Source: Candidatus Latescibacterota bacterium
GTDB taxonomy: Bacteria; Latescibacterota; CBDEFO01
Direction of reading: 5' to 3'
Length of the DNA stretch: 64,000 bases
Assembly (NCBI GenBank): GCA_965248755.1
Contig: OZ252149.1
Span: 3,488,001 to 3,552,000, forward strand
Shown: piece by piece, positions 11,221 through 19,038 of the stretch
Layout of the letters: each line of letters begins with the position of its first letter
Position numbering within the stretch: the stretch's first letter is position 1
Made by a program: the position numbers and the translations under genes
The notes under the pieces: generated by a model
What the model saw: the letters and a program-made list of their open reading frames with translations, nothing else
Told to the model about the DNA's origin: nothing
Databases searched by the model: none

Positions 11221-11709
11221 TTATTCCTCACAGATGTACGCAAGGACTTCGACAGCCTGTTCGAGGGTTTCAACGACTGCATGGGCGCGACCGTCCACTT
11301 CTTTCAGGGAGTGTCGGAAGCCGGGGCCGTGAACTACAATAACGGGCTTGCCGTGGCGGGCGGCTTCTGCTATATCGCTGGCGGTATTCCACTGACGCAA
11401 GCCTTTCTGCTCTTCGTCAAAGAAGGCGATCAGGACGTCGCATTTGGAGATCCAGATACCGGTGCGCAGATCGTTGATCCTCCCACCGAGGTCGTCCTGG
11501 ACCCTGGAAAAGAAATCGGAGGATCCGACATTGTCCTGGGTAATATCCTGGGTTTCCACACCTATGGCGTCGCTTCGGCCATGGTCCTCACAGGGGCCTT
11601 TGAATATGACCGGAAGGTTGCGCTCCTCGCACATTTGTCGTACACGCTCGCGCCAGCCGCCGTGGATGTGGCCAGCCAGGTAGATGAGCAGGGAATCAGA
11701 ACGAGCCAT
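11221..11709 (-). CDS. YtoQ family protein (nucleoside 2-deoxyribosyltransferase-like)
   Basis: IYLAGHIH..WR, H.RSDAIG, QWNTA.D, H.LKEVD. Confidence 0.8.
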   Translation of the reverse strand: MARSDSLLIYLAGHIHGGWRERVRQMCEERNLPVIFKGPCEDHGRSDAIGVETQDITQDNVGSSDFFSRVQDDLGGRINDLRTGIWISKCDVLIAFFDEEQKGLRQWNTASDIAEAARHGKPVIVVHGPGFRHSLKEVDGRAHAVVETLEQAVEVLAYICEE

Positions 11710-11791: not shown

Positions 11792-11936
11792 CTACACGGA
11801 ATCTGGCCGTCCAGACTGCGCCGAGCGATAGGCAGCATCCAGAACCTCCGATTGTTCTCGTACCGACCTCGCCGGGCCCCCATTAGGTGTCATCCACGCC
11901 CAGGATTAGATCCACGAAGTTATTGGGCGGCCTCCT
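11792..11936 (-). pseudogene. Degenerate copy of the 3' end of the Gfo/Idh/MocA gene (shard A)
   Basis: PPNNFVDLILGVD...GEVG...EVLDAAYRSAQSG matches the C-terminus of 14276..15325. Confidence 0.8.
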
Positions 11937-12563
11937 TCAACTCAGATCGTACCTTCCCGTTGCCAGGAGGTATCCCAGCCAGGCGATCCCTAAGGTGTAC
12001 ACCAACGACACGAAGACACTAAGGTGCTGAATCACAGCAGGGAGCAACGGCCAAACCCCAACCAGCAAGGAACCCGCGACTACAAGGCAAACAGGCATTG
12101 CCGGGAACGTGTGAGCCTTTAGAAGAGCCAGTCCGAAGACGGCGTAGCCCACAGCGAAGAGAATCGGGCCTAAATAGAACACCATTCTCACAACCGGATC
12201 CGCTGGATCCGAGCCTGGGTTGAAGCCATACTCAGAAATGAACTCCGGGTGCTGCGCTATGACGAGCGGATAGATGAATCCTGACCAGTACAATTTGCCG
12301 AGGTAGAGGACTAGGCTTACACAGGCGACAAGGAAACCCCCGAAGCCAAAGGCACCCACGTTCTTGGCAGTTGCGCTGTACAGCCCAACCAGGCCCAGGA
12401 AGTTCATAAGGAAGCCAAGGACGATCAGGATGTGGCCAAAGAGCCACATGACGTGATTCGATCCAGATGAGTCATGCGGGTGGACCGAGAACCCAATCGT
12501 GACGAGGATCCCACTACCGGTCAGGGCTACGCCGGCTAGTTTGATTAGTCTCTCTGTCGTCAT
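11937..12563 (-). CDS. Multi-pass membrane protein, integron-cassette-like
   Basis: About 6 hydrophobic segments; begins GTTAGCC-N-GGAGG-ATG directly after an attC site; its own downstream attC is missing. Confidence 0.75.
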   Translation of the reverse strand: MTTERLIKLAGVALTGSGILVTIGFSVHPHDSSGSNHVMWLFGHILIVLGFLMNFLGLVGLYSATAKNVGAFGFGGFLVACVSLVLYLGKLYWSGFIYPLVIAQHPEFISEYGFNPGSDPADPVVRMVFYLGPILFAVGYAVFGLALLKAHTFPAMPVCLVVAGSLLVGVWPLLPAVIQHLSVFVSLVYTLGIAWLGYLLATGRYDLS

Positions 12564-12582
12564 CCGCGCCTCCAGCAAGTCC

Positions 12583-12653
12583 GGCTAACGTATGGATCAC
12601 CTGCTTTGCGAAGCCGCAGGCGAAGCAACGTCAGGTGCAGCCAGTTGTTCGGT
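12583..12653 (-). mobile_element. Integron attC site (71 bp)
   Basis: Minus strand ACCGAAC aactggctgCACCTGacgTTGCTTCGcctgcggctTCGCAAagCAGGTGatccatac GTTAGCC: R''/L''/L'/R' palindrome. Confidence 0.8.
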
Positions 12654-12847
12654 GACGGAATCGGGTCCTGCAGCGCCAAGCATAGGCAGCATCCAGAACC
12701 TCGATCGCTCACATGCCGACCTCTCCGGGCACCCAGAAAGTGTTGTCCACCCCTAAGATGAGATCCACAAAATTGTTGGGCGGACTGTCGCAACTGTAGT
12801 CCCCGGTTGCCGGGTCCAATTCCATCAGAAAGTCATCGCCGTCGAAC
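12654..12847 (-). pseudogene. Second degenerate copy of the 3' end of the Gfo/Idh/MocA gene (shard B), lying between two attC sites
   Basis: FDGDDFLMELDPATGDYSCDSPPNNFVDLILG...GEVGM*AIEVLDAAY aligns with 14276-14477. Confidence 0.85.
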
Positions 12848-12912
12848 GGCGAAGCTTAGCGGTGACGACTCAGCGCAGCGAATGAATCGTCCGCTACAGA
12901 GACTTGTTCGCC
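12841..12912 (-). mobile_element. Integron attC site (72 bp)
   Basis: Minus strand GGCGAAC aagtctctgTAGCGGacgattca...tgagtcgtcaCCGCTAagcttcgcc GTTCGAC; starts 8 nt after the stop codon; R'' is the exact complement of GTTCGCC at 14074-14080. Confidence 0.85.
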
Positions 12913-12919
12913 GCTTCTT

Positions 12920-14058
12920 CTATATCTTTACAAGGTACTTGGTTATGTAATCCCGTGGCAGCTGATTTTCTTTAGCGCCCTCCTCAACAATCCTGACGTA
13001 GTCTGGATTGGGAGGGTCAGTCGTGAAAGATTTGGAGATAAAGGTCTTTGCTATGATCGGGACCTCACCTGTCTCCGTCCACACTTCGATCACATTGTAA
13101 TACTTTTCATATACGTCACGTAGACGCGCGAAGTCGTAACAATCGATCTCATAGCAGACGCCCCAGGTACCTTCACGATCTGAGCATACAATGTTTGCCT
13201 TTGATGTACCGTCCTTTGACTTCTTATTGTAGCGAAAAGTGTAGCCGTGGAGCCATGCCTTGATCTTTTTGTGTACATACTGAACGCGACAGCGAAACTG
13301 TTTTGTTTTCAGATTACTGCCATACGCGAAATAGAAGCAGCGCTCGACTTGTGCAATGTCATCCATTTTTCGAATGAAATGCTCTTGCAGCGGTTTGCTG
13401 CGAAGTAAGTCCTCGCGATAGGCGCCGATGCAATCGAGGAGAGCCTTCTGAAAAGCATCCCGGTATATCACAAGACCATTTCCATTCCGGTCCATCACAC
13501 AAGTCGGGTCGCTTTCCTTTGCGGCCCTCACCTTTGATCCGTATTTCGTCGAGGCCTCGTGGAGGAGCCCGCTGCGGATATGATGGTAAAACCTTTTGGC
13601 ATCTCCCCGATCAAAAACCCCCGCGAAGGGAGCGCGCTTGGTTAGGAAAGACACGAACAAGCCGGCGCTTGATGTATACTCGTTAGGCTGCGTGTGACGT
13701 GCTAATTGTTCTGGCGTGATCATCAGTTTATTGGCAATTTCCTTCCGGTCAGCCTCGTCGAGGGGTAGACGGTAGACCTTCCCTTGATAAAGGGCTTCAA
13801 GGAACTCCAACAGCACACATTGGAGGGCAGAGGCGGAGTGCCCCTCACCGAGCCTTTTATTGATCGCGAGAATAGACTGGATTGGATTCAGGAAGCGGGT
13901 GTCATCCTTAGCCGGAAGAAATCGTAAGCTTCCTCCCATTTATTTATGTTCTTCGGGTCATCGATTAACGAAGCGCGAAGCGCTAGCCAATGATCAACGG
14001 TCTTATAACCCGCTATCCGCGTGTCAGTCGGAATTGATGATGGGTGAGACTGGGCCAT
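12920..14058 (-). pseudogene. Integron cassette gene: unknown N-terminal domain fused to a gamma-glutamylcyclotransferase (AIG2-like) domain; one-base frameshift near 13904
   Basis: GTTCGCC-AAAGGAAAGAG-ATG at 14058 reads MAQSHP...KWEEAYDFFRLR, then DTRFLNPIQ in the track frame; C-terminal YFAYGSNL...P.PDY motif. Confidence 0.75.
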
Positions 14059-14275
14059 CTCTTTCCTTTATGTGGCGAACTAGGGCTTATACAGTTTTCT
14101 ATGCTAAGCACCTATATACAGCTATTTGAGCTATATAAGACCCCAGTGAAATATTAAGAATAAACCTGTAATATTAAAAATATCATTCTGTTAAGTCACA
14201 ATTATCAGCGGTATTTCTACTCATAATTCACACACAATGCCTTTCTCTCTGAAGTTCTCATGAATATCAGCTATA

Positions 14276-15325
14276 CTACACTACCTCCGTCTTTCCTGAC
14301 TTCGCCGATCTGTAGGCAGCGTCCAGAACCTCGATCGCTCTCATACCGACCTCGCCGGGCGCCCAGCAGGAGTCATCATTTCCCAAGATAAGATCCACAA
14401 AATTGTTGGGCGGACCTTCGCAACTGTAGACTCCGGCGGCCGGGTCCAGTTCCATCAGAAAGTCATCTCCGTCGAACCTCTGAACATCCATCCGGGCGCG
14501 ATCCATGTCCACCATAAGCATCCCCTCTGTCCCATAGACGCGCACATCCACCTGGAATCTTGCCTGATCCGGAACAAAGGCCGTTCCGAAGATCGTGCCG
14601 ATAGCTCCGCCTTCGAACTCCGCGCTTATGGCAATATTGATCTCCACCTCTGCGCCGGGGCTGGTGGTCCGGGCATAGACGTTGCTCGGCTTCAGGTCAG
14701 TCAGAAGGAAAAGCATCCCGAGGGCGTGCGTCAGATTCGCCAGGCCGTAGCCTCCGCCTGCCACCTTTGGATCTGCCCATGTCTCCTTATCGGGTCTGAA
14801 GAACATCTCACCGTGGATGAACTCCTGGCCGCGAAGGAGACTAACGATAGGCGATGACTGCTGGCAATGGATCGCCTCGATCTTGCCGACCACTCCGGCG
14901 TCCATCCGCCGCTTGGCCTCCTGGATATAGGGTTTATAGTGCCAGCCGTGCGGGATCATAAGGGTCAGGTTCTTTTCCTTAGCCGTTGCTACAAGATCAC
15001 GAGCGTGATCGGCATTTGTAGTTAGAGGTTTTTCGCACATCACGTGACAGCCGGCCTCGAGCGCCGCCGTGGCATGCTCATAGTGCATGGTATGCGGCGA
15101 AGCGACTACGACGCCGTCCAGTTCGTTATCCGATAATAGCTTCTGATAGTCCTCAGTTATGTATTCGAACCCGAACGTATCCTGAAGTCGCTTCAATTCT
15201 GACATGCCGATCCGGCAGACCGCTGCGAGCTCCACATCGTCCCGCTTTTTTAAGACAGGAATGTGGTTAGAACTTGCCCACCATCCCGCGCCGATTACGC
15301 CGATTCGCACCTTGCCATTCTTCAT
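14276..15325 (-). CDS. Gfo/Idh/MocA family oxidoreductase
   Basis: IGVIGAG, VVVASPH..H, HVMCEKP, GGG.....TH, AAYRSA. Confidence 0.93.
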   Translation of the reverse strand: MKNGKVRIGVIGAGWWASSNHIPVLKKRDDVELAAVCRIGMSELKRLQDTFGFEYITEDYQKLLSDNELDGVVVASPHTMHYEHATAALEAGCHVMCEKPLTTNADHARDLVATAKEKNLTLMIPHGWHYKPYIQEAKRRMDAGVVGKIEAIHCQQSSPIVSLLRGQEFIHGEMFFRPDKETWADPKVAGGGYGLANLTHALGMLFLLTDLKPSNVYARTTSPGAEVEINIAISAEFEGGAIGTIFGTAFVPDQARFQVDVRVYGTEGMLMVDMDRARMDVQRFDGDDFLMELDPAAGVYSCEGPPNNFVDLILGNDDSCWAPGEVGMRAIEVLDAAYRSAKSGKTEVV

Positions 15326-15430
15326 CTTAAGCCTCCATCTTAACGCAGTAGACGATAGATTCCGCAGGCGCGTACAGGGGCGCGCTACGCTTGGTGAATC
15401 CCTGCCCTGACGTGTATATTCATCTCTCCA

Positions 15431-16786
15431 TCAGTCTTCAGGAGGCGGTGTACGACCTCCGCTAAACATAGTGGGCTTTTGGGTTCCTGTCGGCCAGTAG
15501 CCGTCGGGGTCCTCGTCCCACAGATTTCCACACACCCTGGAGATAACGCGCCATTCCGCAGCGCCCATGTCGACCGTCGAGTGGTGCACGAAACGCTTCA
15601 GCCCCGCCCGCTGGCAGGCCTGTAGAATACGGTAAAGGTCTGTCGCCGGCATCTGGTCGCCGGCGTGAGAAGCACGTCCGGTGTCCACCCAGCAGATAAC
15701 TTTATCGTCATCTCCAACAGCCTCCAACGCCCGCTTCGTTTCGCTGTAGACGGTTTCTGTGAAGAATTCCTCTGGAAATCCTACCTCGTCCATATCCGTC
15801 AGCGAGCCTATGCCCGGAAGTTCGATACCAAGCAAGGCCTTCACCACCGTAAAGCAGTCCTCTTCTGTCAGTGTAGAATTCCATTTGGCGAGCCTCTTCA
15901 CCCAGCGCGAGATTGTCCCGTACATCCCGTCGAAGCCCCGGTGCCAGAAATAGTGCTTCGGGAAGATATAGTCCAGGATAGGCCCCAGACGCTGATAGTT
16001 CTGTCCGGTGAGCGAAGAGAAGGCGGCTGAGCGTGGGATGCCGCCGATTTCGACCTTCCTGTCCAGTTTGTCAAACTCGGCGCGGACGGCAGCCATGGAC
16101 GCTATGGTCTTCTCCTCTCGTGCGCGCAGCCAGTAGAGGACGTCTTCGTTGATGTCGAACAGGGTGAGCGCGGACAGCATACCTCCCGGAGCGTGATAGC
16201 GTACGAGGTCCGGCGTCAGATTGTGAAAGCGCTTCCGCAGATGCGCTATACCGCGCTCCATACGGACGGTATCCAGGCCCATCTGTTCGAAGATCTCCTG
16301 TTCGTGCTCGCGTATCTCGAACACCTGGCCGCCGTGATGAAAGGCCAGCTCGTAATGGTTTTCTCCCGGACCGTCTATGATCTTGCCGTGCACCTGCGGA
16401 TAGGCCTTGACCAGGTCCAGCGCCGAGGCAGCGCCGCTGATGGCGCCAAAGGGATCCTGTTCCACAGGAAGACTGCTCCCCTGCGGCAGGGAGCCGCCAA
16501 AGACCATAATGTGCCAGCCGCGAGCGGCGGCATCGTCCAGCATCGCATGAAAACGTCGTTCCTTTTCCGGATCTGTCGGGGCCTCCGGCGGCGGGGGAAC
16601 GCCGAACGATTCATAGATGGCCGGATCGGCGCGGTACGTCGGAATTTGTGTACCGTCGTCCTGTTGGAAAAACATGCGCCCAATGATAATGCCCCTCATG
16701 CCCCCGTCGTGCCATGCATCGAAAGTGCGCTTATAATCGTCCAGCCAGTGTTCAAACGGGTTGTCTACGGATTTCCATACTTTCAT
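15431..16786 (-). CDS. Hypothetical protein (possible TIM-barrel hydrolase), copy 1 of a near-identical pair
   Basis: 451-aa open frame with GAAAGGA RBS; near-identical to 17578..18933; no motif recognised with certainty. Confidence 0.7.
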   Translation of the reverse strand: MKVWKSVDNPFEHWLDDYKRTFDAWHDGGMRGIIIGRMFFQQDDGTQIPTYRADPAIYESFGVPPPPEAPTDPEKERRFHAMLDDAAARGWHIMVFGGSLPQGSSLPVEQDPFGAISGAASALDLVKAYPQVHGKIIDGPGENHYELAFHHGGQVFEIREHEQEIFEQMGLDTVRMERGIAHLRKRFHNLTPDLVRYHAPGGMLSALTLFDINEDVLYWLRAREEKTIASMAAVRAEFDKLDRKVEIGGIPRSAAFSSLTGQNYQRLGPILDYIFPKHYFWHRGFDGMYGTISRWVKRLAKWNSTLTEEDCFTVVKALLGIELPGIGSLTDMDEVGFPEEFFTETVYSETKRALEAVGDDDKVICWVDTGRASHAGDQMPATDLYRILQACQRAGLKRFVHHSTVDMGAAEWRVISRVCGNLWDEDPDGYWPTGTQKPTMFSGGRTPPPED

Positions 16787-16809
16787 ATGGCGGTCCTTTC
16801 TCAAATGTC

Positions 16810-17449
16810 AATTTGCCTCTGCTCGAAGCGGTGGAATTCGGGAACGGCCCCCACTCTACATCCATGCCGATCCTGCGCGAATTGTAGCCGAAACGCTCGT
16901 CGTCCGGAGCGGGCTGCTGCCAGACGCGATCGTTCCGCCAGATTTCAGCCTCTTTGTGCTCCCCGTCCGCACTGAACTCGAAGTAATCGTCTTCACCGCC
17001 GGCGTCCAGGAAGAAACCGAAGTTGGTACCGTAATTGCTTGCCGGAGTGTACTCGATCCCGAAGGAGGGTAGCACCTCCGGTACATGGTTGATCTACGAG
17101 GACGAGGCCTGGCCCCCGGTTTGGTTAACGATGAAATCACATCGTAGATCGTCGGGTGGCTGCCAATGGCCCTGAAATAGGGGTGGTGATGGTACATGTT
17201 CGACATTAGTCGAACACGATCGCGTCGCGGTAGTTCCGTGCGGTCTTTCATCTCCGGTTCCCAAAACGTATAGAAGTAATCGGGTAGCCAACCTTCGTAC
17301 GCCGTTACTGGTTTGAGTTCACCGTCGAGCAGACGATCAATCATCCGATCAAGTTCGAGCAGATCGCTTCCCGAGATCAGCCGCCGAATAATCAGATAAC
17401 CTTGGCGTTCGAACTGTTTTCGCTGTTGTGAATCGATTGCCATCTGCAA
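16810..17449 (-). pseudogene. Chimeric remnant: N-terminal part of a PhyH-family dioxygenase (17449-~17125) joined to a C-terminal fragment of another gene
   Basis: QFERQGYLIIRRL...HP.I.DVISSL is typical of a PhyH N-terminus but the HxD motif is absent; downstream frame reads NFGFFLDAGGEDDY. Confidence 0.6.
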
Positions 17450-17577
17450 GCTTTCTCTGTCAGTTTGCCATCAGGATAGAGTGACACGCTAAAGGATGAA
17501 GCAGCTCGTTATCAGCAGGATATTATGGGGCGGTACCCGCCTTACTCCATTCGGCGACGTGTATATTCATCTCTCCA

Positions 17578-18933
17578 TCAGTCTTCAGGAGGTGGTGTGA
17601 GACCTCCGCTAAACATAGTGGGCTTTTGGGTGCCTGTCGGCCAGTAGCCGTCGGGGTCCTCGTCCCACAGATTTCCACACACCCTGGAGATAACGCGCCA
17701 TTCCGCAGCGCCCATGTTGACCGAGGAGTGGTGCATGAAACGCTTCAGCCCCGCCCGCTGGCAGGCCTGTAGAATACGGTAAAGGTCTGTCGGCGGCATC
17801 TGGTCGCCGGCGTGAGAAGCGCGTCCGGTGTCCACCCAGCAGATAACTTTATCGTCATCTCCAACAGCCTCCAGCGCCCGCTTCGTTTCGCTGTAGACGG
17901 TTTCTGTGAAGAATTCCTCTGGAAATCCTACCTCGTCCATATCCGTCAGCGAGCCTATGCCCGGAAGTTCGATACCAAGCAAGGCCTTCACCACCGTAAA
18001 GCAGTCCTCTTCTGTCAGTGTAGAATTCCATTTGGCGAGCCTCTTCACCCAGCGCGAGATTGTCCCGTACATCCCGTCGAAGCCCCGGTGCCAGAAATAG
18101 TGCTTCGGGAAGATATAGTCCAGGATAGGCCCCAGACGCTGATAGTTCTGTCCGGTGAGCGAAGAGAAGGCGGCTGAGCGTGGGATGCCGCCGATTTCGA
18201 CCTTCCTGTCCAGTTTGTCAAACTCGGCGCGGACGGCAGCCATGGACGCTATGGTCTTCTCCTCTCGTGCGCGCAGCCAGTAGAGGACGTCTTCGTTGAT
18301 GTCGAACAGGGTGAGCGCGGACAGCATACCTCCCGGAGCGTGATAGCGTACGAGGTCCGGCGTCAGATTGTGAAAGCGTTTCCGCAGATGCGCTATACCG
18401 CGCTCCATACGGACGGTATCCAGTCCCATCTGTTCGAACATCGCCTGTTCGTGTTCGCGTATCTCGAACACCTGGCCGCCGTGATGAAAGGCCAACTCGT
18501 AATGGTTTTCTCCCGGACCGTCTATGATCTTGCCGTGCACCTGCGGATAGGCCTTGACCAGGTCCAGGGCCGAGGCAGCGCCGCTGATGGCGCCAAAGGG
18601 ATCCCGTTCCACAGGAAGCCTACCTTCCTGCGGCAGGGAGCCGCCAAAGACCATAATGTGCCAGCCGCGAGCGGCGGCATCGTCCAGCATCGCATGAAAA
18701 CGTCGTTCCTTTTCCGGATCTGTCGGGGCCTCCGGAGGCGGGGGAACGCCGAACGATTTATAGATGGCCGGATCGGCGCGGTACATGGGAATGTGTGTAC
18801 CGTCGTCCTGTTGAAAAAACATACGGCCAATGACAATGCCCCTCATGCCCCCATCGTGCCAGGCATCGAAAGTGCGTTCATAATCGTCCAGCCATTGTTC
18901 AAGGGGGTTGTGAACGAATGTCCATACTTTCAT
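17578..18933 (-). CDS. Hypothetical protein, copy 2 of the pair
   Basis: Paralog of 15431..16786. Confidence 0.7.
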   Translation of the reverse strand: MKVWTFVHNPLEQWLDDYERTFDAWHDGGMRGIVIGRMFFQQDDGTHIPMYRADPAIYKSFGVPPPPEAPTDPEKERRFHAMLDDAAARGWHIMVFGGSLPQEGRLPVERDPFGAISGAASALDLVKAYPQVHGKIIDGPGENHYELAFHHGGQVFEIREHEQAMFEQMGLDTVRMERGIAHLRKRFHNLTPDLVRYHAPGGMLSALTLFDINEDVLYWLRAREEKTIASMAAVRAEFDKLDRKVEIGGIPRSAAFSSLTGQNYQRLGPILDYIFPKHYFWHRGFDGMYGTISRWVKRLAKWNSTLTEEDCFTVVKALLGIELPGIGSLTDMDEVGFPEEFFTETVYSETKRALEAVGDDDKVICWVDTGRASHAGDQMPPTDLYRILQACQRAGLKRFMHHSSVNMGAAEWRVISRVCGNLWDEDPDGYWPTGTQKPTMFSGGLTPPPED

Positions 18934-19038
18934 ACGGCACTCCTTTCTCAAATGTTAAGAGTGAAAGAGCGGGGGAGGGGAGATTACCCGGCTCCACCGT
19001 CTAAGCGAAACCGCCTCCGCCGGCATCCTGCTGCCCGC

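Follow-up and report, generated by a model that had tools for sequence, protein, structure and literature searches.

Host-gene tails interleaved with integron cassettes at a reused G/TT site: probable debris of attC × attG recombination in an uncultured genus

A fragment of a chromosomal oxidoreductase gene, here called shard B, lies between two integron attC sites downstream of the gene whose 3′ end it duplicates. It probably is tail debris from attC × attG recombination in this neighbouring gene, later trimmed by a deletion against the second attC site (attC2). The unit made of shard B and attC2 has no likely function and is considered a non-coding remnant in one uncultured genus. The window is the whole 64-kb stretch of DNA that was analysed. 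The genome containing it is designated G000, and G001 is a sister species of the same genus. The features of the locus, all read on the minus strand, are:

14276..15325, minus strand: intact Gfo/Idh/MocA oxidoreductase gene (349 aa), the target gene
14468..14477, minus strand: candidate attG site in the oxidoreductase gene (G at 14477, TT at 14476-14475, CGGA at +6 to +9)
14078..14207, minus strand: attI-like platform repeat of 130 bp, putative attI (crossover G at 14080)
12847..14079, minus strand: cassette 1, with a gamma-glutamylcyclotransferase-like gene (ATG at 14058, stop at 12920), frameshifted near 13900
12841..12912, minus strand: attC1 (R″ GGCGAAC, R′ GTTCGAC, G at 12847); its bottom strand is the plus strand
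12654..12846, minus strand: shard B, a decayed duplicate of the oxidoreductase 3′ end (nt 850 up to the base before the stop codon)
12583..12653, minus strand: attC2 (R″ ACCGAAC, R′ GTTAGCC, G at 12589)
11937..12588, minus strand: cassette with a membrane protein gene (11937-12563, 208 aa, full-length), its own attC gone
11792..11930, minus strand: shard A, a second decayed copy of the oxidoreductase 3′ end, with the first ~60 nt missing, ending at the stop codon
11221..11791, minus strand: intergenic region and intact ytoQ-like gene (ytoQ at 11221-11709)

Shard B and its attC sites

The initial annotation had described a piece of the neighbouring gene packaged like an integron cassette, and its coordinates and letters were correct. 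Shard B starts at the G/TT of attC1 and spans 193 bp (12846-12654); counting the crossover G at 12847, it is 194 bp long. Its other end adjoins the edge of the attC2 R″ box (12654/12653). As had been claimed, the GTTCGAC at 14471-14477 corresponds to Arg-Phe-Asp codons of the intact oxidoreductase (gene nt 849). Over 165 nt, shard B and the intact gene have 85% identity, with 7, 4 and 14 differences at codon positions 1, 2 and 3, respectively. Its final 20 nt match the G001 tail at 14 of 20 positions and reach the base before the stop codon. An internal TGA and a 1-nt deletion are present, and the shard is a 3′ fragment, not one whole gene. Integron cassettes usually carry one whole promoterless gene; ORF-less ones exist, so this trait is not strictly defining. 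Like a cassette, the unit begins at the TT following the G/TT crossover of an att site and ends in a complete attC with R″, L″, L′ and R′ boxes and extra-helical bases.

Misassembly at the joins of shard B is unlikely, since a 2205-nt contig spanning 11901-14105 with zero differences was found in two of the four public runs examined (X1 and X2, which represent one sample, possibly the source of the window). The frameshift of cassette 1 near 13900 is likewise present in the X1 and X2 contigs. A paralogous copy of the oxidoreductase gene had been put forward as the target of cassette integration. This was rejected: shard B duplicates the neighbouring gene's own tail, and the next full-length homologue in G000 is only 33% identical at the protein level.

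attC sites were searched with a home-made covariance model, which is not that of IntegronFinder. It was trained on 12 other sites of G000 and G001, leaving out attC1, attC2 and the attC preceding shard 3 of G001, and its covariation was above that of all 500 shuffles. The two attC sites proposed initially were recovered as exactly the two matches in the window, at 12841-12912 (36.1 bits) and 12583-12653 (33.6 bits). The folding of the bottom strands, proposed as a second check, gave a weak signal in plain folding (z of -2.1 for attC1 and -0.6 to -0.9 for attC2). In the genome-wide search, 150 of 819 and 150 of 868 candidates were scored, attC1 was missed and seven weaker matches were left out. 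Of the attC matches examined, the other 27 of 28 were not seen to open onto the 3′ end of an adjacent host gene (blastn against G000 only). Half-deleted attC sites are common in the arrays studied here.

The oxidoreductase protein is 95% identical to its G001 orthologue. The last 11 codons of the gene and ~70 bp behind them (window 14200-14310, minus strand) differ from every other copy and had no match in G000 or in the fetched loci. Upstream of it, at 15409-18951, two near-identical 457-aa genes at a spacing of 2147 bp were found, in G001 too, without a Pfam match. The start of cassette 1 matches the attC1 R″ box at 7 of 7 positions, and its protein (12920-14058, minus strand) belongs to the gamma-glutamylcyclotransferase family, with a long N-terminal part lacking an assignment. 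The 208-aa membrane protein has 65 homologues, mostly of about 208 aa, and the covariance model matched no terminal attC in its cassette (11937..12588). No cassette was found to which attC2 natively belongs, and a weak match in G156 was put down to chance. A sigma-70 promoter scan at the locus returned 0 promoters.

The attG site, the platform and the sister genome

The initial annotation had suggested a secondary integrase site at the upstream join of shard B. The sequence supports this reading, through the motif of the site and the reuse of the same base in G001. In the available text of a preprint by Loot et al. (bioRxiv 10.1101/2022.09.11.507474), hot-spot attG sites are defined by an experimentally validated motif, GWT at -1 to +2 and CRGM at +6 to +9. 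The oxidoreductase G/TT fits this motif, with CGGA in G000 and CGGC in G001 and in shard B. The motif is found at 1.8% of the GWT sites of G000 and at 4 of the 43 sense-strand GWT sites of the oxidoreductase gene. As far as the available texts go, attC × attG insertion at hot spots was obtained experimentally at rates near those of attI, excision at nearby genomic sites was also obtained, and attC recombination on incoming single-stranded DNA was described (PMC12614218).

In G001, three tail copies stand behind the intact oxidoreductase orthologue. Shards 1 and 3 both open at the same G/TT: the attC in front of shard 1 is reduced to its two R boxes, and the one in front of shard 3 is complete and different (25.5 bits). 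Shard 2, like shard A, lacks its beginning. After the intact gene, and again after shard 2, come a ytoQ stub, the 3′ end of intI and a complete or partial attI. Parts of the intergenic/ytoQ region follow every tail copy of G001, and in both genomes an intact ytoQ without a platform comes after the last tail. The repeat unit of the genus consists of the tail from G/TT, the intergenic region, the ytoQ start, an intI remnant, attI, cassettes and attC. The G001 joins are spanned by contigs of runs X5 and X6, which come from two studies. G000 and G001 have different cassettes ahead of the tail, and the attG site is occupied in G001, the only congener examined. The first cassette of G001 (L029:6530-9044) carries a type II methyltransferase and a downstream gene and is frameshifted, with other indel states in runs X6 and X8. 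A DegT-family aminotransferase gene forms a regular cassette of G001 (L029:14899-16234, R″ match of 6/7). An extra copy of the last ~60 nt of the tail, the intergenic region and the ytoQ start was seen 1.2 Mb away, at G000:C1:2298582-2298827, where no att site was noticed.

The 130-bp repeat had 13 matches in G000, 11 of them with the whole right end, and 17 in G001. Three features led to its interpretation as attI: the G/TT at its end, the varied cassettes that come after it and, in several copies elsewhere, a co-oriented 3′ (C-terminal) remnant of intI ahead of it. By this anatomy, the repeat takes the place of attI in a complete integron, between intI, here as 3′ remnants, and the cassettes. 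The search for intI recommended initially yielded no intact integrase in G000 or G001 (genomes above the cut-off: 0 of 1 and 0 of 2); the intact IntI of G041 is part of another platform. Tail duplication beside attI was seen for one of the 13 attI matches in G000 and in one of the six G001 regions tested (the pattern used in this test missed 3 of 9 regions), and it is not supported as a general mode of attI spread. One attI present only in G001 lies in an island remnant (G001:C6:425340-428498) that ends in the attI copy, and G000 has an empty site near 3053970. Elsewhere in G000 (G000:C1:3679334), an attI platform is fused to the proS stop codon via a short match to the intI stop region.

Two other origins of the joins were considered. 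A conventional island integrase or an IS element could have made the duplications, with the attC contact arising by chance, or the arrangement could be an assembly artefact. Other attI copies do lie on island remnants and IS copies are abundant; against this, three joins place an attC or its remnant exactly at G/TT, and contigs from three studies bridge them. Such an origin is barely credible and is already largely refuted. Alternatively, an empty platform would have entered by attI × attG recombination and received its cassettes later at attI, which would give the same attC/tail joins with any cassette. In the part of the published assay available, recombination of attI1 with the genome occurred at background level only (10^-6), and this route is extremely unlikely.

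The downstream join and the shard B unit

Shard 1, the G001 counterpart of shard B, does not end at the stop codon but extends across the intergenic region and 35 nt into ytoQ. There it joins attC2 at the L″ box, with 13 of 14 nt matching and a CTGGC microhomology. A 623-bp insertion precedes the right half of attC2 in G001, a layout also found in run X5. Compared with shard B, G001 has about 120 additional host bases at the corresponding position, and attC2 is joined elsewhere. Since each genome keeps something that the other lacks, the simplest reading of these sequences is a longer ancestor that would have undergone separate deletions in G000 and G001. A deletion at the second junction was what the initial annotation had named as speaking against its proposal. 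The G001 sequence points to such a deletion, with a force weakened by the mosaic nature of the copies. The intergenic part of shard 1 is closest to that of shard 2 (94%) and the copies are mosaic, so the extension of shard 1 may be a later conversion. An integrase cut at the R″-like GTCTAAC near the host stop codon was also considered and rejected, as it does not reproduce the observed join.

The join of shard B with attC2 coincides with both the R″ edge and the stop-codon position. This exactness would suit de novo creation of a cassette, in which an unspecified process put attC2 at the stop codon of the gene, and the possible conversion of the G001 extension would suit it as well. On the other side, what was captured is a mid-gene fragment, shard 3 has the upstream join with no attC following, G001 retains host DNA across the join, and half-deleted attC sites are frequent here. 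No second copy of the shard B and attC2 unit was found in G000, in 168 genomes of the phylum, in plasmids or in viral contigs. Creation in this way is very unlikely.

The complementarity between GTTCG and CGAAC noted initially is real; it extends over only 5 of 7 positions, versus 7 of 7 in most clear cassettes here. AAC/GTT is the invariant part of attC R boxes. The pairing adds two bases past it, as is the case in 2 of 27 other model matches and in 3 of 19 first-cassette starts. Over 19 attI rows processed automatically, the match between R″ and cassette start was 7/7 in eight, 6/7 in two, 5/7 in two and at most 4/7 in five (probably wrong boxes), and in two rows no boxes were found. A 7/7 match was thus obtained for 8 of 17 automatically paired cassettes, to which cassette 1 is added. 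R″ boxes with CGAAC make up three of five at the locus versus 2 of 25 model matches elsewhere (Fisher p about 0.02, by hand).

The attC of a circle made of shard B and attC2 is predicted to fold in a recombinogenic form with a p of about 0.96, versus 0.45 in the array, and the trimmed unit is predicted by this folding to be excisable. The proposal of chromosomal DNA becoming a cassette thus stood as regards the cassette-like ends and the predicted circle; it did not stand as regards G001, which keeps host DNA and joins attC2 elsewhere. No joint of an excised circle was found in the contigs of the public runs examined (contigs only). The unit is regarded as frozen because no intact intI remains.

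A composite cassette was weighed on the same data. Here, an excision circle produced by attC2 × attG recombination (tail, flank and attC2) would have been inserted at attI and then trimmed, and shard B would be a true, if accidental, cassette. The pairing of the attC2 R″ box with GTTCG, the predicted folding of the circle, the different cassettes before the tail in G000 and G001 and the excess of CGAAC boxes at the locus are consistent with it, and excision at nearby genomic sites is known experimentally from the available part of the literature. The last tail, with an intact ytoQ and the native flank after it, cannot be explained by this route, and entry at attG is needed anyway. Moreover, of the three CGAAC boxes, two are located upstream of tails, a position that fits displacement by attC × attG recombination equally well, and the R″/start match is only 5/7. 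On balance, a composite cassette is unlikely.

Allele history and known systems

A 1-nt deletion and seven substitutions are common to shards B and 1 and absent from both intact alleles. Six of these seven are synonymous (p 0.0009 versus neutral decay; p 0.009 versus the 35% expected for duplication in place). Changes specific to the line of shard B and shard 1 are four synonymous and one non-synonymous (p 0.01, or 0.03 with the deletion; polarised by eye and small in number). Since the shared substitutions are mostly synonymous, the alignments favour a tail that was once part of a working allele. This bias speaks for an incoming allele having displaced a working tail rather than for duplication in place. 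The intact genes have no identity break at G/TT (nt 849); a break is found near nt 936. Patches of 10-18% divergence stand out in the region, where the background is about 2-4%. Shard B and shard 1 are 88.5% identical, which makes them more divergent than the third positions of three of the four neighbouring genes (2.6-5.6%; ytoQ 18%), and the tail copies are mosaic.

Duplication in place would require no incoming DNA: attC × attG recombination between sister chromosomes would have made the tandem copies, and the allele differences would have come later by recombination. It would give the same joins as displacement, it is in line with the patches of 10-18% divergence, which indicate frequent allele exchange, and it explains why tails lie beside this gene only. 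However, the last unit should then carry a platform and has none, and the four to one ratio of synonymous to non-synonymous changes also argues against it. Duplication in place is quite improbable.

Displacement by incoming DNA, the explanation preferred here, would proceed as follows. DNA from a relative carrying the unit would enter at attG, either as a circle cut by attC × attG recombination or as a linear piece joined on its left by homologous recombination. The incoming tail allele would restore the gene and the resident tail would be pushed downstream, behind attC. Three such rounds would give three stacked tails. Traffic between attI and attC would swap the first cassette in each lineage, and recombination between tails together with short deletions would remove most of the middle units. 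In G000, the result would be a gene-less, cassette-shaped unit of host DNA. Counted against this explanation are the lack of an intact integrase, the absence of a circle joint from the contigs, the lack of an identity break at G/TT, the mosaic copies and the exact join of shard B with attC2. The capture of host DNA by attC × attG recombination is the core common to displacement, the composite cassette and duplication in place.

The locus resembles the attG cassette insertions of the preprint cited above, as far as its available text shows, in the joining of an attC at G/TT to chromosomal coding sequence and in the GWT and CRGM motif. The excision at nearby genomic sites reported there would also pick up host DNA. 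In that text, single cassettes disrupt their target in E. coli and V. cholerae assays. At this locus the target gene is unbroken and its 3′ end has been copied, attI moves along with the unit, and one site has served repeatedly in nature. Gene-restoring prophages and islands carry a duplicate of the displaced part of their target; the intragenic sites listed in the available portion of PMC12540744 include those of e14 and phage 21 at icd. Like these elements, the locus has an intact target, displaced 3′ ends downstream that start at the crossover, and several units stacked at one site. Unlike them, it has no dedicated island integrase or ends, its far join is an attC and only C-terminal remnants of IntI are present. 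It was not classed as a gene-restoring island, because it has no island integrase.

Delta-attI cassettes, in the accessible part of PMC12901181, are similar in being non-canonical units in arrays, with several attI copies per genome. There, a cassette gene ends in a piece of attI, whereas here host coding DNA ends in a whole attC. As in a CALIN or decayed chromosomal integron, as defined in the available text of bioRxiv 10.1101/2022.09.11.507474, attC sites are clustered without an intact intI; unlike in a CALIN, an attI is still present and the cassettes are interspersed with tails of a host gene. No description of gene-restoring, repeated use of attG was found in the literature searched, whose coverage excluded most subscription journals, and the available texts of PMC12614218 and 10.1101/2025.06.18.660453 do not describe the arrangement.

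The locus looks like a natural hot spot that was reused at one base, leaving the target gene whole and pulling host DNA into the array. It offers a concrete site and a concrete 264-bp unit for testing. It also calls for caution, as host DNA bounded by G/TT and attC may be debris and not a newborn cassette. The origin of cassettes is still termed a knowledge gap in the accessible part of PMC12901181. Judging from the predicted excisability of the unit, host DNA could be turned into cassettes by capture and subsequent deletion. More tentatively, integron platforms might behave as self-stacking, gene-restoring islands, with attC as the donor, attG as the target and host DNA captured and trimmed to attC-bounded units; this broader reading is doubtful. 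If it is true, capture at attG followed by trimming would be a natural route to new cassettes from chromosomal DNA without the building of a new attC, and whole genes such as ytoQ would have been part of the captured unit.

The stack of tails is locus-specific and was seen in this genus only (G000 and G001). Nine loci of distant oxidoreductase orthologues (42-62% identity) carry no tail duplicates, and the attG site is absent in the four distant orthologues inspected. The attC model had no match in 14 loci of distant relatives, and linkage of the Gfo gene with ytoQ was not found in eight other ytoQ loci. The same attI-like repeat is present in six of 13 genomes of another family (G041, G043, G044, G031, G011 and G039), preceded, where checked, only by intI 3′ remnants. 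An AT-rich element of 100-135 bp starting GTTCGGCAA, possibly an ORF-less cassette, follows attC sites in several arrays (G000:C1:20217, 24091, 3677064 and 3677707) and also occurs in arrays of G001.
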